Below are positions 6,365 to 31,368 of a DNA stretch of 40,767 nt, one piece after another. The DNA lies in the NCBI GenBank assembly GCA_050012755.1, contig JBEKGO010000024.1, forward strand, positions 1 through 40,767, given 5' to 3'. Position 1 is the stretch's first letter. Each line of letters begins with the position of its first letter. The stretch comes from Candidatus Bathyarchaeia archaeon (GTDB taxonomy: Archaea > Thermoproteota > Bathyarchaeia > Bathyarchaeales > Bathycorpusculaceae). Below the pieces are notes generated by a model, which was given only the letters and a program-made list of their open reading frames with translations, did not search any database and was not told the origin of the DNA. The position numbers and the translations under genes were made by a program.

Positions 6365-6946
6365 TCATTTTTCTTCTTTGGTTATCTCTTTTCCAATTGA
6401 GAACACTTGTCCCACGGCTTTCCCAACTTTATGATATGCCATCCCTGAAGGATTCCAGATTATGGGTTTCACTTTTTCAATGTCTGGAAGGTTCTCCTCA
6501 TTGAGCACAAGAGAATCAGCTTTGACATCCATGATTTCACCTATAAACTCCGTGTGTAAGCCGATTTCAACTATTTTTAGAACTTTGCACTCTATAATCA
6601 ACGGAAATTCTTTCACATAGGGCGCATCAACAAGATCGCTTTTCACAGGAGTAAGCCCTGTTGCCGCGAATTTATCCACCGTTTTTCCCGAAGTGAGGCC
6701 AAAATAATCAGCCTCCTTGACATAGTTTTCAGATGGAATGCTCACTGTAAACGCTTTCCGCTCCACAATATTATTGTAGGTATACGTGGCTTTTCTGAGA
6801 GATACATAGATGCATGGCGGTTTGGAACAACATACTCCTCCCCAAGCAGCAGTCATAACATTTGGTTTTCCCTCTCGATCAAAAGTTCCTACAACCCAAA
6901 CAGGAGTCGTGGGAACGATGGTTTCTGCACCTAAAGATTTTTTCAT
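6365..6946 (-). CDS. Flavin reductase-like protein (flavoredoxin family)
   Basis: MKKSLG...[10 protein letters not shown]...[10 protein letters not shown]...ECKV...[17 protein letters not shown] supports a start at 6946. Confidence 0.9.
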
Positions 6947-6979
6947 AGGAAACCTCCTTAACATTCTGTCTTTTGAGCA

Positions 6980-7825
6980 CTACTCTGTTTTCAATGCAGA
7001 AACTTTTATGCTTACCACTGTGTTGGCTGCTTCCTTTACCTCTTCCTCTGTCATGTTTGCCATTTTGATTGCTTCTTTCAATGTGGATTCACTTATGATG
7101 TATTCAAGCGGGTAAGTTTTTTCTTCTATGACTTTTACTTCTTTGAATCCAGCTTTTCGCATTAGTTCAAGATATTTATCCTTAAGCTCTGCTCCCGAAA
7201 TGCATCCAGCATACGCTTCAACATTATTTTGAATAGATTCAGGCAACTCTTTTAAGAGAACAATGTCCGAAACCATCAATCGTCCCTTTGGAGCAAGAAC
7301 TCTGAATGCTTCTTCAAACACTCGCTTCTTGTTTGGGGCGAGGTTGATTACGCAGTTTGATATTATAACGTCGACTGAATTGTCTGCGACAGGAAGATTT
7401 TCAATTTCTCCTAGTCTGAACTCGACGTTTGTGTATTTGCCTTTTCTTGCGTTAGCTCTTGCTTTGTCAATCATTTCGGGAGTCATGTCTACTCCTATTA
7501 CTTTGCCTTTTTTGCCCACTTTGTTGGCAGCTAAGAAGCAGTCAAAGCCTGCCCCTGCACCTAAATCAAGAATTGTCTCCCCTTCTTTTAGCGATGTCAT
7601 AGCCGTTGGATTACCACAGCCAAGTCCCAAATTTGCCCCTTCAGGAACGGCGGTCATCTCAGCTTCACTGTAACCTATCATGCTGCATACTTCCTTGTTA
7701 GTTGGAGCCGAGCAACAGCTAATAGGTGATGCGCAACAAGAGCCATTGGTTTTGGCAACTTTGGCGTATCGATTTCTAACAAGTTTCTTAATTTTTTCTT
7801 CTTTCTTTTCCATACTGTTCACCAT
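6980..7825 (-). CDS. arsM: Arsenite S-adenosylmethionine methyltransferase
   Basis: [33 protein letters not shown] and N-terminal CC pairs; directly downstream of arsR. Confidence 0.93.
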
Positions 7826-7826
7826 T

Positions 7827-8156
7827 CTATCTGCAAGTCATTTGATCCAGAACCTCTTTCGTTAGTACGTTGACAAGCTCTGGCGTTAAATCGTCAACAA
7901 TATTGTGTATTCTGGGATCGACAATTGAATACATTCGTTTTGTTCCTTCTTTTCGGCATCTGACTATTCCGGTTTCTTTGAGGATTCTTAAGTGGCGTGA
8001 AACGAGCGGTTGAATTAGATTTAGATGTGGAACGATTTCGCAGACGCATTTTTCTCCGTCTCTCAAATATGCTATTATTTCGAGTCTGATTGGATCGGAG
8101 AGAGCGTAGAAAACTGTTGATTTGAAGCGATTCTGGTTTTCCACTTTTGCAGACAT
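7827..8156 (-). CDS. arsR: ArsR/SmtB metalloregulator
   Basis: [12 protein letters not shown]...EKCVCEI...QPLVSRHL. Start uncertain (8156 or 8180). Confidence 0.9.
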
Positions 8157-8227
8157 GGTTTGATTTAGTGTTGATAACAATATTTAAAAGTTGCTATGAA
8201 TAATCGAAATGAAATAAGGCAACAGAT

Positions 8228-8533
8228 ATGTCTGAAGAAACTTGGCACGGAATTCCCCGAAGCAAGATACTCTGGTATCCTACAATAGACTACGAAAAAT
8301 GCATCAGCTGCGGAAAATGCGTGGAATACTGCAAACTCGGAACCTATGAATTTGAAGAAATCAAAGGCAAAAAGATGTCAGTTGTGAAAAATCCAACTAA
8401 TTGCGTTGTACTCTGCAATGGGTGCGATGCAATATGCCCTGCCCACGCTATTCACCATCCCTCTAAGAAGGCAACTCGTGAGAAGATACAGGAACTCAGA
8501 AGAGACCCTTTACTAAAATTGAGAAAGAACTAA
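8228..8533 (+). CDS. 4Fe-4S dicluster ferredoxin
   Basis: CISCGKCVEYC and CVVLCNGCDAICP. Confidence 0.9.
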   Translation: MSEETWHGIPRSKILWYPTIDYEKCISCGKCVEYCKLGTYEFEEIKGKKMSVVKNPTNCVVLCNGCDAICPAHAIHHPSKKATREKIQELRRDPLLKLRKN

Positions 8534-8608
8534 GCCCATTGAAAACATCCGAGAAATTATAGATGAAATGGAACGCAAAGTCAAAGGTTAATTGAAGAAA
8601 ATGAGTGA
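8532..8608 (+). pseudogene. C-terminal remnant of an ArsC/LMW-PTP gene
   Basis: Translates as KPIENIREIIDEMERKVKG, then after a frameshift LIEENE*. Resembles the ArsC C-terminal helix (compare [15 protein letters not shown] at the end of the 9490 gene). Confidence 0.5.
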
Positions 8609-8930
8609 TGGTCACGTTAGAATTAGAGATTGGGAAGAATTCAAGCGTTTAGTTAGCGAAAAGAAGCCAAAGTCGATTGTGTTTATACTTGAGCAAAATG
8701 CTCTTTCACCAAACAAAGAACTTACAACTTTAAGAATAATATTGATGCACGACAAGCGTTACTACATCTTCCTGGATTTTCCTAAAGACCACTTCCTTAG
8801 AGAAACAAAAATTCCTTTGCACAAAGACAAAAACGGTCTATGGAATCTTGATGAGGCTGAGGTGAAAAATATATTGAAGAAGCAATTTGAAAAAGAGAAC
8901 GTGGAAGTGTTTTCTTTTTGGACTACTTAA
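8601..8930 (+). CDS. Hypothetical protein
   Basis: Intact ORF with protein-like composition; no motif recognised. Confidence 0.7.
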   Translation: MSDGHVRIRDWEEFKRLVSEKKPKSIVFILEQNALSPNKELTTLRIILMHDKRYYIFLDFPKDHFLRETKIPLHKDKNGLWNLDEAEVKNILKKQFEKENVEVFSFWTT

Positions 8931-9011
8931 AAGACGAAACAACTACTTCTATAAATAATATATTGACCATGTTTTTATGGTTCAAAAAGAATCGTATAAG
9001 GATGAGTCTTA

Positions 9012-9488
9012 ATGGTTGAAACTAAGGTTTTGTTTTTGTGCACTCATAATTCAGCTCGGTCTCAGATAGCTGAAGGTCTCCTTAGACATTTGTATGGCGA
9101 TGAGTATGAGGTTTTTAGTGCTGGAACAAATCCCATGCAGGTCAATCCTTTAGTCATTAAGGTTATGGATGAAATCGGGATAGATATTTCTGGGCAATAT
9201 TCTAAAAGCCTCGATGTTTTCAAAGATGTCGATATCGACCTGGTTGTATCAGTTTGCCGCAGCAGCTCAAAAATAAACTGTGCCATTTGCGCCTCACCAA
9301 TAGTTATGGGTAGACCTGAGTTGATTCGTTCAAGATTGCCTAAAGCTAAGGATTATCTGGATCATCCTTTCGATGACCCTTCCGAAGTGCAGGGAACTGA
9401 AGAAGAAAAACTTGAGGCCTTCCGTCGTACAAGAGATGAAATGAAAAAGTGGATAATCGAGGAGTTTAGTAACTTGAGGTGGGCGTGA
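9012..9488 (+). CDS. arsC: Arsenate reductase ArsC (LMW-PTP fold) with a CxxC-bearing insertion
   Basis: P-loop [25 protein letters not shown]. Confidence 0.88.
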
Positions 9489-9489
9489 G

Positions 9490-9939
9490 ATGGGAAAAAC
9501 TAAAGTCATTTTTCTATGCACAGGAAATTCGGCACGGAGCCAAATGGCAGAGGCATTTCTGAGGAAATATGCTGGTGATTATTTTGAGGTTTACAGTGCA
9601 GGCTTCGAGACTCGACCTATTCACCCCTACACTATTAAGGTGATGAAAGAGCTTGGTTATGACCTAAGTGGTCACCGTTCAAAGAACTTGTCGGAGTATC
9701 TTGGAAATATACATTTTGGGATAGTCATAACCGTATGTGTAAAAGCAGAAGAGGCGTGCCCCACCATACCGGGAGTATCCACAAGAATGTATTGGCCCTT
9801 CGAAGACCCAGCGGCATTTCAAGGGACAGAAGAAGAAAAACTGGCAAAATTCCGTGAAATTCGCGACAAAATTAACGAAAAAATAAAAGCATGGTTGAAA
9901 GAAAGATGCATAACGGAAACTGAAAACCCTCATTTTTAG
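9490..9939 (+). CDS. arsC: Arsenate reductase ArsC (thioredoxin-coupled type)
   Basis: [15 protein letters not shown]-x6-CP, WPFEDP. Confidence 0.92.
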
Positions 9940-10097
9940 CGGAGGTTTCCGTTTATGGGGTCTGCTCTAAGCCTGTGAGAATCCATTGCATCTTCAAAAT
10001 CCAGACAAGATTCGCCCGTTTTCTCTGGTTCTCTCAAGGAACAGCGTCCCTCCTTCCAGTTTATACAAGTTTTTTTCTCACAGGAAGGATAACTCAT
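9936..10097 (-). CDS. 53-aa four-cysteine microprotein (not in ORF track)
   Basis: [57 protein letters not shown] just upstream; fills the intergenic gap downstream of trmB. Confidence 0.6.
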
Positions 10098-10184
10098 TAA
10101 GACTCCTTCAGAAAGAAACTAAGAAAGATTCTGATTTTTAACGTTCTATTCCATACCATATGAAGACCTTGGTTATCACTAGTA

Positions 10185-10958
10185 TCAACAAGATGTTGCT
10201 TTGCTTGAGAAGTTAGGTCCGCAGCATCTTGGGTTGTCATAGTAGTCGCGGCAAACCTGCATAAGGCTCTGGTCCTGAGTCAAAAGCGCACTTTCACTCG
10301 GCCAGTTAGTGAGCGTCACGAGATTTCTCATGTCTGAAATGAACATCGCTAGACTACAGTAAAGAATCCTAACCTCACCTAGGTCTGAGAGGTCTTGGCT
10401 ATTTGCGATTTCAGGAGTTACAGCTAAGTTAAGTTTAACTCTTCGTTTTTCTTTAGCGTCTCTCAATGCTGGGTGAATTTCCCTGACTACTTCAGGTAAT
10501 GTCATGAACATGGTTATTTCTTGCTTCGAAGCTTGAATTAGACTTTTCATGCGGTTGACGATACTTTTTTGTCCACGCAGGATGTAGGCGATTTCAAGTT
10601 CTTCAGGTTTCTCCGAGCTATCGTAGATCGGCGTCAACTTACTTGCAATGATATCGGCCTGCTTGATTTTCTCGTCTAGCTCGTCCTTTAGCTGCTGTTT
10701 GACGTTGGCAACCGCTTCATTTGGTGCAATGGGACGATAAACTGCCGGAGTGCTTTGCTGCATAGTAAGCATACCTTTTTTTGACAAGCTATCTAGTGCA
10801 TAGTATATTTTTGAGTCAGGGATTTTGGTTTCATTACAGAGCGCACTCGCTGTTATGTTGGGATGCGCCAAAAGTGCGATGTACGTTAGGGCTTCGTGGG
10901 TTGAGAGCCCGAGGTCTTTGAGCTGTGAGACTATCTGATTTAACGCACCATTTTCCAT
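10185..10958 (-). CDS. TrmB-family transcriptional regulator with Cys-rich C-terminus
   Basis: LKDLGLSTHEALTYIALL...IPDSKIYYALDSLSKKG wHTH plus effector domain; tail VCRDYYDNPRCCGPNFSSKATSC. Confidence 0.9.
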   Translation of the reverse strand: MENGALNQIVSQLKDLGLSTHEALTYIALLAHPNITASALCNETKIPDSKIYYALDSLSKKGMLTMQQSTPAVYRPIAPNEAVANVKQQLKDELDEKIKQADIIASKLTPIYDSSEKPEELEIAYILRGQKSIVNRMKSLIQASKQEITMFMTLPEVVREIHPALRDAKEKRRVKLNLAVTPEIANSQDLSDLGEVRILYCSLAMFISDMRNLVTLTNWPSESALLTQDQSLMQVCRDYYDNPRCCGPNFSSKATSC

Positions 10959-11006
10959 CGCTATTAGCCTTCTACTGTTTTCTGATAAGTATATGTGAGA
11001 AAACTG

Positions 11007-11040
11007 TTATATAGTTTTTTCTACTACTAAAAAGTAGTAG
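11007..11040 (+). promoter_or_regulatory. hgcA promoter: TATA (TTATATA, 11007-11013) and perfect operator palindrome CTACTACT-AAAA-AGTAGTAG (11021-11040)
   Basis: 8-bp perfect inverted repeat between the TATA box and the hgcA ATG. Confidence 0.8.
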
Positions 11041-11051
11041 AGAATGAGAAC

Positions 11052-12101
11052 ATGAGTAAACAATCATGTAACTGCACTGACGCAAAAACAGGCACAAACG
11101 TGCCAGACAAATCACTTCCAGAAATACTACCAACAAGCTGGTCAACAGGCAATGCTGAATTAAAAGATCACATTCTAGCCCGCTTGGGTGTCTATCGACT
11201 AAATCACCGCGTAGCACCTGGTTTGTACTCTTTAGGACAGCCAACTCAAAAGTCGCCCGTCTTTGTCTCCGCAAATTATACTTTGAGCTTTGATGCATTG
11301 CGGTCTTCTTTGAAGGAGACTGACGCCTACATCCTGGTTTTGGATACACAGGGAGTTAACGTTTGGTGCGCTGCAGGCAAAGGTACCTTCGGCACCGACG
11401 AGTTAGTAAGCAAAATAAAAACCACCAATCTTGCCGATGTCGTCTCCCACAGAAATCTAATTCTGCCACAGCTTGGCGCCTCGGGCGTTAACAGCTTTGA
11501 AGTGGAAAAACAAAGCGGCTTCAAAGTTGAGTATGGACCCGTGCGAGCTAATGACCTTCAAGAATATCTAAAAACTGGCAATGCAACCTCTGAAATGCGC
11601 CAAGTAAAATACACACTCAAAGACCGCTTAGTGTTAATACCCGTTGAACTTAGTGTTGCTGCCCTTCCACTTATTGCAGGCGTCATTGCTTTATACCTTC
11701 TTGGCGGCGTTTACCCTGCATCAGCGGTTGCTGTCTCGATGTTGGCAGGCACTGCCTTGTTTCCTATAGTTTTGCCTTGGCTGCCAACAAAAGACTTCAG
11801 CTCTAAAGGCTTCATGCTAGGAGCTATCTTAGCATTGCCCTTTGCAGCAGTTGCCTTTCTGTTTCACTCCGACTCGGTGATGTGGTTGCGAATCGCCTTG
11901 GGGTCGACTTACGTCTTCCTTATGGCGCCAGTCACAGCCTACCTTGCATTGAACTTCACCGGTTCAACAACCTTCACAAGTCGAACTGGCGTTAAGAAAG
12001 AAATCTTCCGCTACATTCCAGCCATGGCAGCATCACTAGTAATCGGCGCAGTATTAGCAGGAACAGTGATTGCTATGCATTATTTGGGAGGTGCAATTTA
12101 A
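11052..12101 (+). CDS. hgcA: Mercury methylation corrinoid protein HgcA
   Basis: Cap-helix motif NVWCAAGK; PGLY, ANYTLSFD, LILPQLGA, YGPVRA; C-terminal TM domain with NFTGSTTFTSRTGVKKEI; overlaps hgcB. Confidence 0.95.
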   Translation: MSKQSCNCTDAKTGTNVPDKSLPEILPTSWSTGNAELKDHILARLGVYRLNHRVAPGLYSLGQPTQKSPVFVSANYTLSFDALRSSLKETDAYILVLDTQGVNVWCAAGKGTFGTDELVSKIKTTNLADVVSHRNLILPQLGASGVNSFEVEKQSGFKVEYGPVRANDLQEYLKTGNATSEMRQVKYTLKDRLVLIPVELSVAALPLIAGVIALYLLGGVYPASAVAVSMLAGTALFPIVLPWLPTKDFSSKGFMLGAILALPFAAVAFLFHSDSVMWLRIALGSTYVFLMAPVTAYLALNFTGSTTFTSRTGVKKEIFRYIPAMAASLVIGAVLAGTVIAMHYLGGAI

Positions 12102-12379
12102 TGTTCAACTCCTACCAACAAACCACCCTACAATACGACAAAGCAAAATGCGTCGGTTGCGGTAAATGTAGCACCGTTTGCCCACACAGAGTCTTCACCC
12201 AATATGGAAACAAAGCAGAGCTTATAGATGCCTCAGCTTGCATGGAATGTGGCGCTTGCCAACTTAACTGCCCCGCAGGTGCAATAAGCGTAGACAGCGG
12301 AGTAGGATGCGCAGGCGGAATGATTCGGGCAGCCCTTAGAGGAGAAAAACTTGATAAAGCCAACTGCACCTGCGGATAA
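12101..12379 (+). CDS. hgcB: Mercury methylation ferredoxin HgcB
   Basis: CVGCGKCSTVCPH, CMECGACQLNCP, GVGCA and C-terminal CTC; TAATG stop/start overlap with hgcA. Confidence 0.93.
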   Translation: MFNSYQQTTLQYDKAKCVGCGKCSTVCPHRVFTQYGNKAELIDASACMECGACQLNCPAGAISVDSGVGCAGGMIRAALRGEKLDKANCTCG

Positions 12380-12498
12380 AAGAGATAACGAATACATGAG
12401 CGAGCCAGAGCTCGCCTTCAAAATAAGACAATCTCAATTTTACGACAAGAAAAGGAGAATTCGAATGAAATATATTCATAGGAATCAGACCCTTTAGT

Positions 12499-12936
12499 TT
12501 ATTGGGGTTCTAAGAGTACTGCAAGTCTGTCTTTGATGCTTTTTAGCTTGTCTATGTATGGAGCTATCTTTGATTTGTCAGATTTGGCTATGTCTTCGAG
12601 GTACAAGATGTAGCTGTTCATCTCTGTTACCATCTCATCCACCGTTCGTGGCTGTTTTGTTGACGTCCCCCACGGCCACATATAATCTTGGTCAGCTTTC
12701 TCTGTGAGCTCATATTTGCCGTCTTCTCGTTTTTGAATGATTCCCTCTTTTTGCATTTCATCTAGCAACGGATATACCGAGCCTGGAGAAGGTCTCCACC
12801 ACCCTTGGCTCATCATTTCTATCTGATCTATTAACTCGGCACCATTTCTCGGCGCCTGACGCAGCATTGAGACCAGCATCATTCGTAAGCCTCCTCTTCT
12901 GTGAGGCCCCATGCCCATTCTTGGGTTAAACCACAT
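12499..12936 (-). CDS. PadR-family transcriptional regulator
   Basis: RGGLR...GAELIDQI...WRPSPGSVYPLL...YELTEK. GGAGGTGAT RBS supports a start at 12936. Confidence 0.9.
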   Translation of the reverse strand: MWFNPRMGMGPHRRGGLRMMLVSMLRQAPRNGAELIDQIEMMSQGWWRPSPGSVYPLLDEMQKEGIIQKREDGKYELTEKADQDYMWPWGTSTKQPRTVDEMVTEMNSYILYLEDIAKSDKSKIAPYIDKLKSIKDRLAVLLEPQ

Positions 12937-12965
12937 TTCTATATCACCTCCAACCATCCTAAGTT

Positions 12966-12983
12966 ATATCGATTATTCGATAT
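12966..12983. promoter_or_regulatory. Putative PadR auto-operator ATATCGA-N4-TCGATAT
   Basis: 7-bp perfect inverted repeat about 30 bp upstream of the padR start. Confidence 0.55.
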
Positions 12984-13094
12984 CGTTTATACGATGTACA
13001 AATCAATAAATGTTTCGGTTTTTGGCAGTTATTTAATTCTAAACATCGCGTGGTGCGCTGAGTAAAGTCTTCGTTTCCAACTCAGCTCTTTGTT

Positions 13095-13310
13095 TCAGTT
13101 TATATTTGCATCTATAATATCTTCTAAATCCCCTGTTCTGACAAAAATGAGTGCTTGAACCTCGCCTTCCTTCTCATAGCTTATGATGGCAAGCTTATCT
13201 CCGCCTTTTACGGAAAGTTTACTTCTCAATTCGTTAGGCAGTACAAATTGCCCTCGTTTACCAACGGTTACTATCCCTTCGATCTTGTACTGAATGTCAA
13301 CTTCGCTCAT
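13095..13310 (-). CDS. AbrB/MazE-fold protein resembling HgcAB-associated HgcC but lacking cysteines
   Basis: IVTVGKRGQFVLPNELRSKL-x3-GGDKLAIISYEKEGEV; lies about 0.7 kb from hgcB. Confidence 0.75.
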   Translation of the reverse strand: MSEVDIQYKIEGIVTVGKRGQFVLPNELRSKLSVKGGDKLAIISYEKEGEVQALIFVRTGDLEDIIDANIN

Positions 13311-13333
13311 GTTCCCTTGCTCAACTGAGAGGT

Positions 13334-13912
13334 TCACGCCTGTGATTTAATCCAGTTCAGGATATTTGGTGGGTTTCTTTTTCCTGACCCGAATTTTACC
13401 CTTGGTTGACCTAAAATCAAGGGAACTTGCACTTCGTAGCCACTTGGCACTCCTGCAGCTTTCAAGACATCGGGGTTTTTCTGGTTCATTATATCAATGA
13501 AGCCCATATAGCATGTTCCCAACTCTAATTCATACGCTTTCAAGAACATGTTTTGAGCTGCAAGCACACTGTCAAGCAAATTAAGCCGACTGCGAATTGG
13601 GTCAGCAACTTCGGTACATATTAGAACTAGAACGGGAGCATTGTAGCAAACAACATCAGCATCTGTCTGAAAGAAAGAGCCGTAGCGTTTTTGTCCTTCC
13701 GGTGATTCGTTGAAGAATTCTTTAGTTTTGTCTGAAACTAGCTTAATTACGCTCTCGTCCTCGATTATAATGAAACGCCAAGGTTGTACGTTGGTTGCGC
13801 TAGGTGCCCAGACGGCAGCTTCCAAGATGGCTTCAATTTTCTCTTTCGGTATCGGCTTATCTGCAAACGCTCTTACACTTCTTCTACTTTTAATGCAATT
13901 GTCAAGTTCCAT
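13334..13912 (-). CDS. Nitroreductase family protein
   Basis: IKSRRSVRAF, APSATNVQPWRF, AAQNMFLKA, LGTCYMG. Confidence 0.92.
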   Translation of the reverse strand: MELDNCIKSRRSVRAFADKPIPKEKIEAILEAAVWAPSATNVQPWRFIIIEDESVIKLVSDKTKEFFNESPEGQKRYGSFFQTDADVVCYNAPVLVLICTEVADPIRSRLNLLDSVLAAQNMFLKAYELELGTCYMGFIDIMNQKNPDVLKAAGVPSGYEVQVPLILGQPRVKFGSGKRNPPNILNWIKSQA

Positions 13913-13930
13913 TTTTTTCCCTCTATTTTT

Positions 13931-13962
13931 CTACTTACAAAAAGTAGTAGTAAGCTATTTAA
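13931..13962 (-). promoter_or_regulatory. Second copy of the hgcA operator (CTACTACT-TTTT-GTAAGTAG on minus strand, 13931-13950) just downstream of TATA TTAAATA
   Basis: 17/20 identical to 11021-11040; also positioned between the TATA box and the start codon. Confidence 0.7.
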
Positions 13963-14012
13963 GGCTAATCTGATTCTTTCTTACTAGAAAAAGGAAGAAA
14001 GCTGCCTCAAGC

Positions 14013-14357
14013 TTAGATTCGATTTTGAGTTGGAGTTGCAGGATTGATTGCTTTCTGTATTACTTCGGTTAGTTTCTCGATAGAGGGCACGCCGCCGTAG
14101 AGTACCAATTCGCGGTTTATGAACAAAGCAGGCATTACATCCATGCCATACTTGTTAAGGAGAGGCTGCAATTTTCGGAGATACTCAGCTTTGGGGCTGT
14201 AGATCGCAGTGGTAAAAGTTAATAGTTCCAATTCGGCGTCGATTTTTGCTTTGGCTAGCACTTCTCTTATTTTCACTTTGTATTGCTGGTCAAGGGGTGC
14301 TAATGATGGATTGCAGCATGAGGCTGAAAGAATATCGATTTGCATTTTACTGCTCAT
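14013..14357 (-). CDS. ArsD-like / thioredoxin-fold metallochaperone
   Basis: ASCCNP vicinal Cys; MPALFINRELVLYGGVPS; overlaps the arsA stop. Confidence 0.7.
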   Translation of the reverse strand: MSSKMQIDILSASCCNPSLAPLDQQYKVKIREVLAKAKIDAELELLTFTTAIYSPKAEYLRKLQPLLNKYGMDVMPALFINRELVLYGGVPSIEKLTEVIQKAINPATPTQNRI

Positions 14358-15264
14358 AAAGGTACTCTCCCACCTTTCGCAGGTTTTGAATTCCATAGAC
14401 ATCGGTTTCGAAGAGAGGAACTTCTTTTTGCAGTATTCCATTGAACCTGGTGGCTATTTCTTTGAAGTATTTTTCCTGTGTGGCCCTTCGTTTTTCCAAG
14501 AACCAGTTGCCCTTAAGAACGTCGGGCGGAATTACTTCGTTGACGATTAATGCCGGGACTTTTACACCAAAGTTTGACAGGTCGCTAATTGCCCGCGCTG
14601 TCTCTTCAATTGGCAACCTTTCGGGTAACAGGACAAGGTTGAATGCAGCTATGTTTTCATCTGATAGGCTCTTCACTGCCTGGTCGTATCGCAGTTTCTC
14701 TTTTTTCAATCGTTCCAGCGTCTGTTCATCGTTAGCCACACCCAATGCCACTGCCAGTTCCTTGCGATTATTAATCTGGCTTGTCATGTAGACTGACCAG
14801 TCAAACGGCATAGATAGCTCCCTTAGCGTTTTACCTGTAGGTGCCGTGTCGAAAACCACGCGGTCATGCTCAGTATCGCCGAGATAGGTAACGAATTGGT
14901 CAAAAGCAGCCATCTCTTCTGCACAGGGAGTGCTGACGGCTTCTTTTCCGAAAAGACCCTCAAAGCCCTGCATCATTCCTTCTAGTCTCTTTTGAAAAAC
15001 ACCAGTTGCTTTTTTAGGGTTGATGTTTAAGCCGCAAAGGTTTTTCACAGTTTCTATCTTGGTGATTTCTGTTTCGCTGATTTTCTGTTCATATGTAGCT
15101 GAAAGGCTAACTGTAGGGTCCGTGGCTACGATAAGGGTTTTGTAGCCGTTGTCGGCCAACCATGTTGCTGTAGCCGCGGCCATTGTGGTTTTTCCTACGC
15201 CTCCTTTTCCGCCGAAGAACAGGAATTTTCGGTTTTCTACTATTTCTCTTAGGTTTTTCTGCAT
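14347..15264 (-). CDS. arsA: ArsA/GET3-family ATPase (single ATPase domain)
   Basis: GKGGVGKTT, STPCAEEMAAFD, FDTAPTG. Confidence 0.88.
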   Translation of the reverse strand: MQKNLREIVENRKFLFFGGKGGVGKTTMAAATATWLADNGYKTLIVATDPTVSLSATYEQKISETEITKIETVKNLCGLNINPKKATGVFQKRLEGMMQGFEGLFGKEAVSTPCAEEMAAFDQFVTYLGDTEHDRVVFDTAPTGKTLRELSMPFDWSVYMTSQINNRKELAVALGVANDEQTLERLKKEKLRYDQAVKSLSDENIAAFNLVLLPERLPIEETARAISDLSNFGVKVPALIVNEVIPPDVLKGNWFLEKRRATQEKYFKEIATRFNGILQKEVPLFETDVYGIQNLRKVGEYLYEQ

Positions 15265-15300
15265 ATATTGGTCACTCCGATATTGTGATATCCGATGTGT

Positions 15301-15527
15301 TTATAAGTTTTCGTGTCGGCATCCGATAGCGGCACACAAATCGCAGACGAGGCAGTCAGAGATTACGCGGCTCACTTCAGACGAAAATAATTCTGATCCT
15401 AAAGAATGAGCAGCTTTGCGGAGTGGAAATCATGCGCCGACTTAGAATAAAAATTCCAAGAACAATCTATCCTGAACTTGAGGTTTTAAGAAAGAAAGGC
15501 TTGATCATCACAAAGTTGAAACAAAAA
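15301..15527 (+). pseudogene. Decayed copy of the promoter and N-terminal wHTH of the 16169 PadR-like gene
   Basis: 15301-15328 matches 16141-16168 at 26/28. ATG is replaced by GCG and there is a +1 frameshift. Encodes LCGVEIMRRLRIKIPRTIYPELEVLRKKGL versus LCGVDIMRQLRIKSPGTIYPVLEVLRNKGL. Confidence 0.8.
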
Positions 15528-16001
15528 TTAATGGAGTTTTTTTGTCAATTCAGCGATCCTCTGCCCCTGCCGCAGGCATTGCCGTTTAACCCTGTCATCA
15601 GGCTTATTGATGGATACCGGCCCGTAGTGGTCGCCTTGTGGGTCGCCGTGAACAACCATACCCGCAACAAGCATTGCTTCTATTATACCCATAACTGTGG
15701 TTTCATTACCACCGCCGATATTTGCTGAACTTGAAAAAGCACCGCCTACTTTGCCGTCGAGTCTGCCATGGAAAATAATGGTGTCTTCGAAAAACTGCTG
15801 AAGCTGCACGGCCATGTGACCGTAATATGTCGGAGAACCCACGACAATCGCATCGTATTTAGGCAGGTCATCGGCTTTTACATTTTCGACAGATTTGCAG
15901 TCGGTTGATAAGCCGGCATCATTCATTGACTTGGCTATTATCTCGGCCATTTCTTTTGTATGACCGCTTCTCGAATAATAGATAACTATCCCGTTTGCCA
16001 T
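15528..16001 (-). CDS. Flavodoxin / WrbA-like NAD(P)H:quinone oxidoreductase
   Basis: YYSRSGHT, GSPTYYG, LDGKVGGAFSSS, GGNETT. Confidence 0.9.
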   Translation of the reverse strand: MANGIVIYYSRSGHTKEMAEIIAKSMNDAGLSTDCKSVENVKADDLPKYDAIVVGSPTYYGHMAVQLQQFFEDTIIFHGRLDGKVGGAFSSSANIGGGNETTVMGIIEAMLVAGMVVHGDPQGDHYGPVSINKPDDRVKRQCLRQGQRIAELTKKLH

Positions 16002-16140
16002 TTTTCTCGCACCTTTGACCTAGTTTTATGTCATTTCTTTTTTGTCTGTCTTCAGAACAGGAACTTGCGATTTTCAGCTATTCTTTTTAAATGTTTTCCT
16101 GTACATATTTGCCACACCAATATTGGATTAACCGATAAGC

Positions 16141-16168
16141 TTATAAGTTTTCGCGTCGGTATCCGATA
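16141..16168 (+). promoter_or_regulatory. TATA (TTATAAG) plus palindrome TCGG-N3-CCGA directly before an apparently leaderless ATG
   Basis: Conserved in the paralogous copy at 15301. Confidence 0.6.
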
Positions 16169-16924
16169 ATGGTGTTCAAGGTGGAAACGTCAAAATCTGA
16201 AATCGCCGGTTCACTTCAAGTAAAAATAATGATGGTTCTGAGAGATGAAAGACTTTGCGGGGTAGACATCATGCGTCAACTCAGAATCAAGAGTCCTGGC
16301 ACAATTTACCCAGTGCTTGAAGTTCTGAGAAATAAAGGGTTAGTCGATTATACAGTTGAAACGTCGGGGGCAGTTCGAAAGAAAGTATATTCCCTAACAA
16401 ATACTGGGAAAAAGGAAATTCGAGACCATCTAACTCAATCTGCAAGATTATGCTGCGACATCCCCGCGCACATCGCCAAAATCTTAGAAAACGCAAGGGG
16501 TTTGGTAGAAATCAAACGCCACCAAAAAGTCCTCTGCACTCTAGAATATGAGGAGATCAAGCATTTCCTAAAAGGCGCCGACATAACCTTTTCAAGCGAT
16601 CTAAGCGTTCCCGCAGATTCCTATGAAATGGCATTGAGTTTTTTGGGGGTCCGATGCTTAATTGGCAAAGAAAACACAGACATCGCCGATTACGTGAAGC
16701 GCCTGTACAAAAGCTTGAAGAGGGGTGGTTCTCTGTTAGCTATCGAAATTGAAAAAACGGATAACCTGTTCAGCCAAATCCTATTTAATGATGTTTATGG
16801 TTTAAAGGAACCTCCAGGATTGCAAACGGAGGAATTAAAGAGCATTCTGGAAAAAAATGGATTTGCCACTGCGAAGGTCACAAGCAAAAATGGCTTGCTT
16901 TATGCTGTTGCAAAGAAAACATAA
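16169..16924 (+). CDS. PadR-like wHTH fused to a degenerate class I SAM-methyltransferase-like domain
   Basis: SPGTIYPVL...RKKVYSLTNTG; RLCCD linker; RLYKSLKRGGSLLAIE...LEKNGF MTase-like C-half with no clear GxGxG. Confidence 0.75.
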   Translation: MVFKVETSKSEIAGSLQVKIMMVLRDERLCGVDIMRQLRIKSPGTIYPVLEVLRNKGLVDYTVETSGAVRKKVYSLTNTGKKEIRDHLTQSARLCCDIPAHIAKILENARGLVEIKRHQKVLCTLEYEEIKHFLKGADITFSSDLSVPADSYEMALSFLGVRCLIGKENTDIADYVKRLYKSLKRGGSLLAIEIEKTDNLFSQILFNDVYGLKEPPGLQTEELKSILEKNGFATAKVTSKNGLLYAVAKKT

Positions 16925-28095: not shown

Positions 28096-31000
28096 ATGGC
28101 AAAGACGAAGGCTTTCCTGTGCGCTTTCTTGATAACCGTTATGATCAGCGGGTTATTTTTTATCGATAGTGTGAATTTTAGTGCGGGTGCTCAATCAGCC
28201 GGAGCGAACGCGAGCGCACAATGGATGCCAGATTCAGCGCTGGTCAACGGACTACCAGAATTAGGGATTATTGGAGAGAATTGTCAATGCCCCATCTTCA
28301 ACTTAACAGGTAACAATCAATGGGAGTTAATAATAGGTCAATTCAACAGTTGGACCGTAAATGAGTATCCTTTTTTAGGGTACAATTGGAACGGCTCCCA
28401 ATGGATCAGCAACTCTGCAATAGTCAAAGGGTTAACCGCTTTACCTAATGAAAACGACCCAACTGTCGGTTTCAACGTTACTGGCGATAATACCTTTGAC
28501 ATGATAGTTGCGCAATGGGCGGGTAATCTAATAGGTAACGGACAAAGTTGGACGGGATACTCTTGGAATGGTTCCCAATGGATAGTCAATTCAAATATAA
28601 TTAGTGGTTTGCCAATGAATACTCTTGACGCCGACAACTATGCATCTTTAGGTTACAACGTGCTAGGCGACGACAAATGGGATTTAATCGTTGACAACTA
28701 CGGAAACAACGGTTACATCGGGTTTGAATGGACTGGAACAGCGTGGACGAAAGAAAACACCTTGGTAAGTGGCTTACCCAATGCGGGGTCGCCGAGCAAT
28801 GGTGACCAATTCCCGATTCCATGTTTAGCTAATAACTTTGCAAACGACAACACATCAATGCTCATAGTCGGTTATTCGAGCGGTGGTGGACCAAATGGCG
28901 CAATACAGGGTTTTCAATGGGAAGGTACTGCATGGGTCTTAAACCCCGCATTCGCTGAAGGTATCACCAACTTGCAACCTTGGTCTAACACTCCAACCGT
29001 AGCTTACAATATCACTGGCAATGGCAACTGGGAGCTACTAATAGGCTCTGCCACGGCGAATCCTAACCAACCAACCTACTACACTGGTTATTACTGGTCT
29101 GGTAATAGCGTTCCACTTTCAGTCTCGATAACTCCACTTTTAGTCTCAATGAACATCGGGCAGTCCCTAAATTTCACCTCAATTGCGTCTGGCGGCACAT
29201 GGCCCTACACGTATCAATGGTATGTAAACGGCAGTGCTGTTTCGGGAGCTACAACAACTTCTTGGACCTTCAAGCCAGCAACAAGCGGAACCTTCGACGT
29301 ATCCCTTAATGTTACAGACCCAACTGGAAACATTGCACAATCAGATACTGCTTACATAACAGCAGACTTCTTGACCAAGTACAACATCACCTTTAGCGAA
29401 ACAGGTGTCGGCTCGGACTTTAATGGCACGGTTGCCATTATAGATGGATCAAGCTATACCGCGAACAATCTTCCCTTGGTTTTCTCTTGGGATAGTTTCT
29501 CAACCCACACATTTGCCTTCCAATCATCGCTCCTACCTGATGGAAACACAACTGGACAATATGACTGGGCTTCAACAAGCGGTCTGTCGACAAGTCAATC
29601 GGACACATTCAATGTAACTCATTCTGGAAGCGTAATTGGCAATTACAATAGCCAGAAATCTGTTCCCATAAATCGTGTTCAAGGATGCTTTCACGCATCG
29701 ACTTTGGGAAACAGTTTGATAGTCAACCTTGCACACACACCTACAAGCGGCGATGTGCTAATCGCAATTATAAGTACAGTTACAAACACGGGGTCCCCTG
29801 CAATTCCTATTAGCATCACAGAGGCAGGTGTCGATAATTCTACAGGTGGCACTTATTGGAACGAAGTAGCGGGAGGAGGAGGTGGAGGTACCTCCCCTGG
29901 AGAGCATGGGCTAGACATGGAGATTTGGGTCGGAAAAGTAGGTCAGAGTCAAGCAAGCAATACTATAAATGTCATATTGAATGCTGCTGCCAATCTTGGA
30001 GCTACGATCGACGTTTGCGAATACAGTGGAGTAGCAAAGATTGATACGACATGGACAAATGGCACTCAGTCCGACACAGCAAATCTATCAACTGGCTCGG
30101 TTATTAGCTCAATGAACGGTGAACTTGCAGTTTGCGGAATTTTTGATGAAGGATATAATTTAACAAATGCAAGCAATGGATTCACACTCTTAGATGGTAC
30201 CTATTCCAATAATCAAGCGTTAGCTTATCTTGAAAAAACAAATTGCCCGATAGGGGAGGAAAGTTCTACAATAACCGTTCCAGGGAATACTGACGGATAT
30301 GGTTGTATAGCGGTCTTTCAACCCACTCTAGTAAAGAGCAATGTAACTGTAACCGACCAGGAGACCGCGAACGGAGTTCTAACCTTTACCGCTTCAGGAC
30401 CGAGCGGACAGCTAGGATATGTTAACGCCACAATCCCCGTCGGATTCAACGCCACAGACATCACAGCGTTCATCGATAACCAACCGGTCCAGCAGCCAAC
30501 CATAACCACGGACGGCTCTAACTACTTCGTCTACTTCGAGTTTCATCTAAGCACCCACAACATCATAATCCAATATGCACCTGCGCCGGCGCCTTCGGTG
30601 TCGATTTCGCCAATGTCTGTTGTTATGAATGTTGGTCAGTCTCAACCGTTCACCGCTACTCCCAGCGGCGGCTCAGGAACATACACAATCTACCATTGGT
30701 ATGTAGATGGCTTTGCAATGTCTGGCGCAACTGCTTCAACGTTTAATTTTGTGCCTGCTTCCGCTGGTTCTTACTCGATTTCTGCAACGGTTACTGACGA
30801 TTCAGGCGCAACATCGGCTCAATCCATGGGTGCAACGGTTACGGTTTCGGCAATTGCAACTCCCCCTCCATCGCAGCCAACTCCTATACCAACTCCTACT
30901 CCAACTCCCACACCAACACCAACCCTCACTCCTACGCCCACGCCAACAGCCACCCCAACTCCAACACCCACTCCAACTCCAACACCTACCCCCTCTCCAA

Positions 31001-31368
31001 GCCCAAGTCCATCACCTAGCCCCAGCCCAACTCCATCAGCTAATCCAACCCCAACCCCCACACCAACCCTAAGTCCAACTCCCACTCCTACACCTACTCT
31101 GAGTCCAACCCCTACTCCTTCAGCTAGCCCAACACCAACAAACAATCCTAACCCCACTCCAACTGCCACACCAGAACCAACACCTAGTCCAACCACGCCC
31201 TCAACTCAAGACCCAACAGCCAACCCAAGCAATAGCCCAAACGCTACCCTTTCACCTACTCCAACAGTACCAGAGTTTCCATCTTTGCTGACTTTAGTGC
31301 TTGTTGCCGGGTTACTTTCCCTGAGTATAATTACCATAAAAAGAAGGAGACAATTCAAGCTTCACTAA
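28096..31368 (+). CDS. Large mosaic surface protein: five Trp-rich repeats, two PKD-like domains, Pro/Thr stalk, VPEF tail
   Basis: Signal peptide; 5 copies of WxxxxxLxxGL...xxLIxG...GxxWxG; SGGxxxYTxxWYVxG PKD-like motifs; TVPEFP + TM + KRRR. Confidence 0.88.
30860..31266 (+). repeat. Low-complexity coding (PT/PS)n repeat
   Basis: Degenerate CCNACN hexamer array encoding a Pro/Thr linker. Confidence 0.9.

Follow-up and report, generated by a model that had tools for sequence, protein, structure and literature searches.

A canonical hgcA–hgcB operon beside a TrmB-type regulator gene in a probable non-methanogenic Bathyarchaeia archaeon

Introduction

The window, that is, the whole stretch of DNA analysed here, is a contig of 40,767 nucleotides (JBEKGO010000024.1, assembly GCA_050012755.1) from a metagenome-assembled genome (MAG) of a Candidatus Bathyarchaeia archaeon. 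It carries hgcA and hgcB, the mercury-methylation gene pair. The best joint explanation of the data, to which a probability of about 0.8 is given, is that the pair is a genuine and intact chromosomal operon of a non-methanogenic Bathyarchaeia archaeon of peat or wetland soil, that it has an ancestral history, and that it is regulated by a TrmB-like protein. The hgcAB pair itself is canonical, and its regulatory arrangement is undescribed. Judged by its genes, the archaeon would form methylmercury (MeHg).

Bathyarchaeia are among the most abundant archaea of peat and of anoxic sediments. Peatlands, in turn, are a major methylmercury source. HgcA and HgcB are reportedly known from Pseudodesulfovibrio mercurii ND132 through the work of Parks in 2013. 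To our knowledge, which here goes back to Gilmour and co-workers, the archaeal carriers of hgcAB are methanogens, fused or Asgard-type homologues aside. A literature search brought up no paper linking Bathyarchaeia to hgcAB, although supplements, McDaniel 2020 or Hg-MATE could already list such cases. A 2025 study (PMC12484752) counts Thermoproteota among 83 hgcAB-bearing sediment MAGs, with the class not named in its main text. A first-pass annotation, made from the sequence alone, had held that Bathyarchaeia are not an established source of methylmercury. That statement stands in so far as no linking paper was found, but the window is not a unique case, as HgcA occurs in 7 of 401 genomes sampled from the class and Thermoproteota have already been listed.

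The HgcA and HgcB proteins

Both proteins pass the cut-offs of their NCBIfam equivalog models. HgcA scored 415 bits on HgcA_corrinoid NF040863 (cut-off 275; 414.9 bits in the genome search) and HgcB scored 112.2 bits on HgcB_ferredoxin NF040864 (cut-off 99). On the model for fused HgcAB-like proteins (NF043039), HgcA reached just 210 bits with a cut-off of 285. The first-pass annotation had described a motif-complete hgcA–hgcB pair, and its reading frames, its motifs and now the profile scores of both proteins agree with that description.

HgcA matches the CdhD/CFeSP corrinoid domain (PF03599) at residues 53-169 and carries the NVWCAAGK motif at residues 103-110, including Cys106. The nearest entries in the Protein Data Bank (PDB) are large subunits of CFeSP (CFeSP gamma 2h9a, 7.5e-12), and no HgcA structure was present among the entries compared. 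The transmembrane (TM) domain noted earlier was also found. The TM count comes from a Kyte-Doolittle hydropathy scan, in which four peaks exceeded 1.6 (residues ~202-220, 223-241, 253-271, and 324-342) and a fifth hydrophobic stretch at 278-300 remained below that threshold. The C-terminal half of HgcA fits a prediction of ~5 TM helices.

hgcB begins where hgcA ends. The stop codon of hgcA and the start codon of hgcB overlap by one base in the sequence TAATG, and GGAGGTG is located 8 nt 5' of the hgcB ATG. HgcB matches the Fer4 dicluster families of Pfam. Its first cluster motif consists of C17/20/23/27 (CVGCGKCSTVCP) and its second of C47/50/53/57 (CMECGACQLNCP), both of the CX2CX2CX3CP type. 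An extra cysteine, Cys70, is found in GVGCA, 13 residues past C57. It corresponds to Cys73 of ND132 HgcB, an extra conserved cysteine that follows the second cluster motif by ~12 residues (Cooper 2020, PMC7305189). The overlap, the two cluster motifs and GVGCA had all been read correctly in the first pass.

The tail of HgcB ends N-C89-T-C91-G. The first-pass annotation had set this CTC tail apart from the usual CC. The tail is indeed present, but it is not unusual, since C-x-C endings are common in congeners and in Chloroflexota. HgcB ends in NC[TS]CG in all four congeners, and several Chloroflexota and other relatives have SCSCG, TCGCS, SCGCGG or TCGC. A reading of the CTC tail as the mark of a divergent HgcB was rejected because the same ending is common among relatives. 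HgcB orthologues differ in tail length and cysteine number. In ND132, loss of either C-terminal cysteine alone leaves HgcB active, and the double mutant loses 95% of activity (PMC7305189). The C-x-C tail would satisfy the known requirement of HgcB, because a single C-terminal cysteine suffices in ND132.

HgcA also has a Cys-x-Cys at its N-terminus (MSKQSC6NC8 in residues 1-9, positions 11052-11078), which mirrors the tail of HgcB. It is kept in congeners (SCGCS), and methanogen HgcA proteins begin with similar Cys-x-Cys or cysteine-rich motifs; the other HgcA sequences extracted from the class lack it. The motif recalls the N-terminal CC/CU extension of HgcA described in a preprint (bioRxiv 10.1101/2022.07.06.499078).

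How would HgcA and HgcB produce methylmercury? The steps are carried over from the family (PMC11588087, PMC7305189). About five helices would hold HgcA in the membrane. The protein would bind cobalamin, and Cys106, in the NVWCAAGK cap helix, would serve as the lower ligand of Co. The two [4Fe-4S] clusters of HgcB would reduce Co to Co(I), which S-adenosylmethionine (SAM) would methylate to methyl-Co(III). Zheng 2024 (PMC11588087) reports SAM as the methyl donor via methyl-Co(III) and Hg methylation by a purified enzyme of the family. Finally, Hg(II), presented by Cys70 and the flexible tail of HgcB (C89-x-C91), would receive the methyl group, yielding CH3Hg+. The C-terminal cysteines of HgcB have been proposed to deliver Hg(II) (PMC7305189).

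Host and distribution

The source MAG (G000) is 2.41 Mb in 65 contigs, is 100% complete with 0.97% contamination, and contains the window as one whole 40.8-kb contig. It belongs to a genus of 120 species genomes. Two MAGs named 'Candidatus Bathyarchaeota archaeon' (G104 and G094) and one named 'uncultured archaeon' (G113) share its GTDB genus, and the host is called a member of Bathyarchaeia because of the former two. The three genomes were paired with these titles through identical match coordinates. The sequence data thus point indirectly to a Bathyarchaeia archaeon of peat or wetland soil as the probable host of hgcAB. The MAG contains an archaeal EF-2 gene and a CdhC gene that adjoins a CdhE-like gene. 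No match to mcrA was found in the MAG; therefore, the organism does not appear to be a methanogen, and the earlier concern that the contig might come from this known lineage of methylators is not borne out. A search for MerB gave no match in the same genome, and control genomes were equally silent.

Relatives of HgcA were searched in 185,579 species genomes. The closest, with 87% identity over the best segment, is in G104, followed by G094 and G113 with 75% each. The nearest HgcA proteins outside the class belong to Chloroflexota and methanogens (Methanomicrobia) and are 55-60% identical. Within the genus, HgcA exceeded the cut-off in 4 of the 120 species genomes (G000, G062, G094, and G113). 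HgcA of G104 is in four pieces with a TAG, and the sole match in G072 is a fused-type paralogue (35% identity). HgcA was above the cut-off in none of 16 genomes from other families of the order. An even sample of the class had it in 7 of 401 genomes, which fall into three families (f1, f30, and f35), and a further 9 of the 401 gave fused-type matches below the cut-off. In other words, canonical hgcAB is present in public Bathyarchaeia data and is rare.

A quick IQ-TREE analysis of 59 HgcA rows (fragments L045, L048, L049, and L050 left out; L004 cut to 300 aa) placed the window protein with those of G094, G113, and G062 in a 100* clade inside the non-fused archaeal/Chloroflexota group. The main bacterial clade was separate (100*), as were the fused HgcAB-like paralogues of the class (99*). 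HgcA of the window thus sits in the canonical non-fused clade and not, as the first pass had considered, among non-methylating paralogues. A more careful tree of 34 rows recovered the genus clade with 100/100 and, as its sister (82/95), the HgcA of G198, which belongs to a different family of the class; its backbone among Bathyarchaeia, methanogens, and Chloroflexota lacks resolution. The fused paralogues (L068 in G072:C324; L105-L109) are ~377 aa long and carry cap motifs such as NVWCAARG and NVWCAATG.

A TrmB-like regulator gene and a putative promoter cassette

A gene for a TrmB-like regulator lies upstream of hgcA and diverges from it. The protein matches PF01978 (62.5 bits) and PF11495 (32.2 bits), both above the cut-offs, and the nearest solved structures are those of TrmBL2 (5bpd and others, 2.6e-11). 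On the TrmB equivalog models NF040851, NF047390, NF041141, and NF047392, it scored 41-68 bits with cut-offs of 500-650. By these profile scores, it is a TrmB family member outside the named orthologue groups. Its C-terminus ends ...CRDYYDNPRCCGPNFSSKATSC, in which RCCG is invariant in all five orthologues of the genus and is accompanied by further cysteines.

Homologues with 31-73% identity occur in 26 of the 401 sampled class genomes. Fourteen regulator loci of the class, 12 of them from other genera, were taken for comparison, and a vicinal CC near the C-terminus was found in 11 of the 14. The divergent neighbours differ among the other genera. Six loci (L132-L137) have a CMD/AhpD-like gene, a gene for a small membrane protein, and arsM; the three arsM products tested all scored 348-362 bits on NF008823 (cut-off 263). 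Two loci have a CMD-like gene, and four have a nitroreductase gene, which Pfam confirms in L139, L142, and L143 and which was called in L141 by reading of the sequence alone. The CMD/AhpD-like protein of the L132-L137 operon has a CxxC motif, and its pairing with arsM echoes the model of an ArsM/AhpD fusion selenoprotein (NF041537, a lower match).

Among 56 other hgcA loci, a TrmB-like gene was found only in the four congeners. In these other loci, ArsR precedes hgcA in many bacteria, and an AbrB/HgcC-type gene does so in methanogens. Three contexts of hgcA were seen within Bathyarchaeia: the TrmB-like gene in this genus, arsR-arsM-hgcA in G455, and HgcC-hgcA-hgcB in G424. A literature search found no paper combining hgcA with TrmB. 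A putative TrmB-type regulator of hgcAB is an undescribed arrangement and the new part of the finding.

The regulator gene and hgcA are separated by a 93-bp intergenic region that is near-identical in five species of the genus. It holds a promoter cassette composed of a TATA-like element, TTA(T/A)ATAG, and a palindrome that ends 12 nt before the hgcA ATG. The cassette is kept in 5/5 loci of the genus and in 12/12 loci of other genera, and in all 17 it stands beside the TrmB-like gene. In other words, the cassette accompanies the TrmB-like gene whatever the target is, whether an arsM operon, a nitroreductase gene, or hgcAB. A 25-nt motif of the cassette has two copies in the 2.4-Mb genome (with up to 4 mismatches), both of them in the hgcAB locus. 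The second copy shows the same order of TATA-like element, palindrome, and ATG on the opposite strand, ahead of a nitroreductase/HgcC-like operon.

These observations suggest a model of regulation. The TrmB-like protein is a predicted repressor: by binding the palindrome, which lies shortly downstream of the presumed TATA box of hgcA, it would repress hgcAB. Its cysteine tail may release it upon binding of a thiophilic metal(loid), and we speculate, by analogy, that the tail could sense As(III) or Hg(II). Such a mechanism would parallel, on the archaeal side, the control that ArsR exerts over hgcAB in Pseudodesulfovibrio mercurii. In our reading, hgcAB may occupy a promoter slot that elsewhere drives arsenic-methylation genes. 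A broader and rather doubtful extension is that repressors with a TrmB/TrmBL2 fold and a P-x-CC tail, together with a ~70-nt TATA/TTCTAC..GTAGA cassette, constitute an as yet undescribed archaeal class of metal(loid) sensors that work through thiols. As part of that same tentative extension, the cassette would have captured arsM operons, nitroreductases, or hgcAB in different Bathyarchaeia.

The company that the regulator keeps also bears on what HgcAB does. One possibility, unlikely yet deserving serious attention, is that HgcAB natively methylates or handles another metal(loid) such as arsenic, or carries out another corrinoid reaction, with Hg an incidental or weak substrate. The pair is surrounded by genes of an ars island (arsM, arsR, two arsC-like genes, and arsA); its regulator and cassette face arsM operons in other genera; arsR, arsM, and hgcA are colinear in G455; and a link of hgcAB to ArsR and arsenic has been published (PMC10349881). 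This possibility is countered by the passing of both equivalog cut-offs, by the retention of every residue known from mutagenesis (the cap cysteine, the Cys73 equivalent, and a C-terminal cysteine; PMC7305189), and by the activity of the purified family enzyme, which methylates Hg with SAM (PMC11588087). It and the joint explanation are not mutually exclusive.

Instead of the TrmB-like protein, a product of the neighbouring operon might bind the palindrome, either the AbrB protein that resembles HgcC or PadR. HgcC-type genes stand directly upstream of hgcA in methanogen loci and in G424, a class member whose HgcC scores 100.5 bits on NF040962, and the window has an HgcC-like gene, a borderline case by its score, behind the second cassette. 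This gene lies 716 bp downstream of hgcAB on the opposite strand and not upstream of hgcA, where HgcC is expected. The constant pairing of cassette and TrmB-like gene (17/17) points away from an AbrB or PadR binder. Furthermore, no HgcC-like gene was detected beside the other four hgcAB loci of the genus, except for an AbrB-PIN pair in G113, and most loci of other genera have no visible AbrB gene within their 1.5-kb flanks. Binding by the AbrB or PadR protein is accordingly improbable. The AbrB-PIN (VapBC-like) pair beside the TrmB gene of G113 was itself rejected as a part of the system for lack of conservation.

History of hgcAB in the genus

hgcAB looks ancestral in the genus, with repeated deletion suggested by the sequences of congeners. 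The hgcB relics, one of them at the same site, and a common synteny are the reasons for this view. G113 and G062 share an order in which the TrmB-like gene diverges from hgcA-hgcB, followed after ~490 nt by trx-arsA-PadR. In both, hgcB is followed by the start of a GNAT acetyltransferase gene. The hgcA-negative G080 (L067, G080:C7, 8253-8364) retains the last ~13 codons of hgcB at the same site. This relic is identical to the window in 38 of 41 nt and has TGA in place of TGC at the final cysteine codon; together with a GNAT acetyltransferase gene, it sits between arsC and trx-arsA. Another hgcA-negative genome, G056 (L153, G056:C33), retains nothing of the pair but HgcB residues 52-92, HgcA being absent within 1.5 kb. 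A further, fragmentary hgcB is present in G094.

For the species relationships, a DNA tree of EF-2 was built from 50 of the 120 congeners, comprising the 30 nearest by EF-2 and 20 picked ones, with all hgcA-positive species included. The closest EF-2 relatives of G000 are without hgcA. The HgcA quartet (G000 and G094 against G113 and G062) agrees with the EF-2 topology. A unit composed of the TrmB-like gene and hgcA-hgcB-GNAT-trx-arsA would have been present in the genus ancestor inside an arsenic-resistance island and would later have been deleted in most species. This pattern matches the history of hgcA described by Lin 2023 (PMC10083202), which is vertical with extensive loss.

Could the pair instead be a recent horizontal acquisition, with a methanogen or a bacterium of the Chloroflexota as the donor? 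HgcA passes the cut-off in no more than 4 of 120 congeners, its nearest relatives beyond the class are those of Chloroflexota and Methanomicrobia, and the GC content of hgcAB is somewhat above the genome mean. An HgcA that groups with Chloroflexota (86/77) is also known from G455. These points are outweighed, and a recent transfer is quite improbable: the closest sequences are those of congeners, to which the TrmB-hgcAB stretch is 74-80% identical in nucleotides and with which HgcA forms the 100/100 clade; synteny with trx-arsA is shared, and hgcA-negative congeners hold hgcB relics; the HgcA quartet is congruent with EF-2; there is no tetranucleotide anomaly; and the TrmB-like regulator is native to the order or class. 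An older transfer of hgcAB into the class could have occurred, given the poorly resolved backbone of the HgcA tree. G455 (L144, G455:C117, 530-2738) belongs to the same family but to another genus, and its arsR-arsM-hgcA genes are on a 2.7-kb contig. Its HgcA may be a separate acquisition.

Integrity of the contig

Evidence that hgcAB resides in the archaeal chromosome comes from its flanks. Both are 75-95% identical at the protein level, and in the same order, in the hgcA-negative congeners G118, G098, G097, and G080. The left flank in common comprises arsM, arsR, a ferredoxin-like gene, a gene for a 112-aa protein without assigned function, and two arsC-like genes; the right flank comprises a thioredoxin-like gene, arsA, and PadR. 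The DNA of the flanks is 80-88% identical to many congeners. One 469-kb contig of G097 carries both the homologous ars island and EF-2, and high-quality congeners have the hgcAB unit on contigs of 182-366 kb. The first-pass impression that the flanking genes are Bathyarchaeia-like is supported by this synteny and by the shared genus with 'Candidatus Bathyarchaeota archaeon' MAGs.

Further evidence comes from public metagenomes. A 5-kb stretch around hgcAB is present in 20 peat or wetland runs from 17 studies, and 18 of these runs (15 studies) are beyond the two possible source runs. No RNA dataset was among the runs listed. Continuity was checked by placing contigs of four runs, from four other studies, on the window. 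All four runs cover hgcAB. Run X3 has contigs that cover 9874-15312 save for short gaps (13077-13093). The left junction between arsC and the TrmB-like gene is bridged by X3 (9874-10886) and X8 (9855-10284) and entered by X4 (9830-10151), and the right junction is bridged by an X3 contig (13093-14358). X8 does not cover 13012-14013, and several runs show holes. The read continuity that the first pass had called for is supported at both junctions by contigs of X3 and at the left one also by X8.

By tetranucleotide distance, the TrmB-hgcAB stretch ranks at the 80th percentile among 1017 windows of the genome, which makes it no outlier. A scan for direct and inverted repeats found no IS-like or att-like boundary repeats around the block; the single meaningful repeat pair there is the promoter cassette. 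Scans of the window for Rfam families and tRNAs gave no match, rRNA included. With syntenic flanks, bridged junctions, and unremarkable composition, chimerism finds no support. A mis-binned or chimeric contig that took hgcAB from another organism, as might be feared in a MAG of 65 contigs with no SSU and with no rRNA on this 40.8-kb contig, is very improbable and already largely refuted by the ordered 75-95% match of the flanks to congeners, the independent runs across the junctions, the long congener contigs carrying the unit, and the contamination of 0.97%.

Points against the joint explanation

Several points weigh against an intact, ancestral, and TrmB-regulated hgcAB operon in this host. 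The EF-2 tree, which is a single-marker tree of 50 of the 120 genomes, puts the five hgcA-positive species in four places. This scatter requires 4 changes, and 88 of 500 shuffles are equally low. Transfer within the genus would explain the scatter too. Frameshifts are present in the TrmB-like gene of G113 (L003) and G104 (L049) and in the C-terminus of HgcA in G094 (L004); these and the four-piece HgcA of G104 could be errors of long-read assembly or decay. The GC content is 46.8% in hgcA and 49.5% in hgcB compared with a genome mean of 41.6%. No 16S (SSU) rRNA was found in the MAG, and its class assignment runs via congeners. The roles of TATA box, operator, and repressor are inferred from position and conservation. 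Finally, the ars-island setting would allow a native substrate other than Hg.

Neighbouring genes

The features of the window are collected in Table 1. hgcAB lies within a genus-wide arsenic-resistance island (6365-10097 and 14013-16924) that contains genes for a flavin reductase, ArsM, ArsR, a ferredoxin-like protein, two ArsC-like proteins, a thioredoxin-like protein, ArsA, a flavodoxin, and PadR. An open reading frame (ORF) of the island at 8592..8930 encodes 112 aa, has no family match, and is 76-91% identical in congeners. Elsewhere in the window, a 1090-aa ORF at 28096-31368 has PKD/Ig-like domains, is probably a surface protein, and shows strong negative GC skew. The contig end (31867-40766; GC 36-39%) is defence- or mobile-like, with toxin-antitoxin-type pairs (UPF0175/PIN and DUF3368), an Mrr-type endonuclease with ATP-cone, NurA-HerA, and an SMC-like AAA protein.

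Table 1. Position, strand, and supporting matches of the features in and around the hgcAB locus of the window.
Feature	Position	Strand	Basis or remark
arsM, arsenite methyltransferase	6980..7825	-	NF008823 362 bits, cut-off 263
arsR	7827..8180	-	NF033788 89.8 bits, cut-off 55
two LMW-phosphatase-type, arsenate-reductase-like genes	9012..9939	+	PF01451; TIGR02691 below cut-off
TrmB-family regulator with conserved Cys tail (...DNPRCCG-x9-C), 257 aa	10185..10958	-	PF01978, PF11495
divergent promoter cassette	10959..11051	.	TATA-like TTATATAG 11007-11014; palindrome CTACTAC-N6-GTAGTAG 11021-11040
hgcA, 349 aa; predicted corrinoid (cobalamin) methyltransferase with C-terminal membrane domain	11052..12101	+	NF040863, PF03599, canonical clade
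NVWCAAGK cap-helix motif, Cys106 predicted Co ligand	11358..11381	+	Cys role from PMC11588087, PMC7305189
predicted HgcA TM domain, ~residues 190-345, ~5 TM segments	11619..12086	+	Kyte-Doolittle scan
hgcB, 92 aa; 2x[4Fe-4S] ferredoxin with Cys70 and C-terminal C89-x-C91	12101..12379	+	NF040864
truncated GNAT acetyltransferase start, 33 codons	12396..12497	+	gene follows hgcB in congeners
PadR-family regulator	12499..12957	-	PF03551
AbrB/MazE-type HgcC-like gene	13095..13337	-	NF040962 69.1 bits, cut-off 70 (below)
nitroreductase-family gene, first behind second cassette	13334..13912	-	PF00881
second cassette copy	13913..14012	-	TTAAATAG 13962-13955; palindrome within 13926-13950; before nitroreductase operon
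thioredoxin-like gene and ArsA/GET3-family ATPase gene	14013..15264	-	pair follows hgcB in G113, G062

Implications

A canonical and apparently ancestral hgcAB in a non-methanogenic genus means that binning archaeal hgcA as 'methanogen-like' may misassign part of the signal. The repeated loss with relics would provide a natural set of near-isogenic species with and without hgcAB, in which the function of the genes could be addressed. The TrmB-type regulator and its putative operator offer a testable handle on the induction of archaeal hgcAB, and this case would add a third independent tie of hgcAB to arsenic-responsive control. If the doubtful sensor class proved real, As(III), Hg(II), or similar thiophilic stress would induce the methylmercury genes of Bathyarchaeia in peat, and three unrelated folds (bacterial ArsR, methanogen HgcC/AbrB, and TrmB-CC) would have converged to link hgcAB with the arsenic regulon.

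Comparison with known systems

HgcAB of P. mercurii ND132 is likewise encoded by a two-gene operon and has the N(V/I)WCA(A/G)GK cap, PF03599, and ~5 TM helices; its HgcB is likewise a dicluster ferredoxin with an extra conserved cysteine and C-terminal cysteines. The window differs in a C-x-C rather than CC tail of HgcB, in a regulator of TrmB rather than ArsR type, and in an HgcA that is ~40-48% identical to the bacterial clade. In place of the CC/CU N-terminal extensions (bioRxiv 10.1101/2022.07.06.499078), HgcA here has C6-x-C8.

The hgcAB pairs of methanogens (Methanoregula, Methanolobus, and Methanomassiliicoccaceae; L008-L024) fall in the same archaeal/Chloroflexota HgcA group with 55-60% identity. 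However, their loci have an HgcC (AbrB-type) gene directly upstream of hgcA, where the window has the TrmB-like gene, and the host of the window has no detected mcrA. The position of HgcC in the loci examined agrees with Zhang 2023 (PMC10349881), who described HgcC upstream of hgcA in methanogens. Fused HgcAB-like proteins of the Pyrococcus furiosus type (NF043039) are distant homologues that also occur in Bathyarchaeia and are reported to be non-methylating (PMC10083202). In contrast, HgcA of the window is unfused, retains GK in its cap motif, and is separated from the fused proteins by a 99* branch.

As for regulation, the ArsR-like regulator of hgcAB in ND132 (Gionfriddo 2023, via PMC10349881) is likewise a metal(loid)-type neighbour with an arsenic link. 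The regulator of the window differs from it in having a TrmB/TrmBL2-like winged helix with a short C-terminal domain and a cysteine tail, and its gene is divergent and not co-transcribed; the ArsR gene of the window is 3 kb away beside arsM. TrmB, TrmBL1, and TrmBL2 of Thermococcales, which are sugar-responsive or chromatin-type proteins, have PF01978 and PF11495 in common with the regulator, whose ~257 aa resemble TrmBL2 in length. Unlike them, the regulator of the window has a ...P-x-CC... tail, and its kind is partnered with arsM, nitroreductase genes, and hgcAB rather than with sugar genes.

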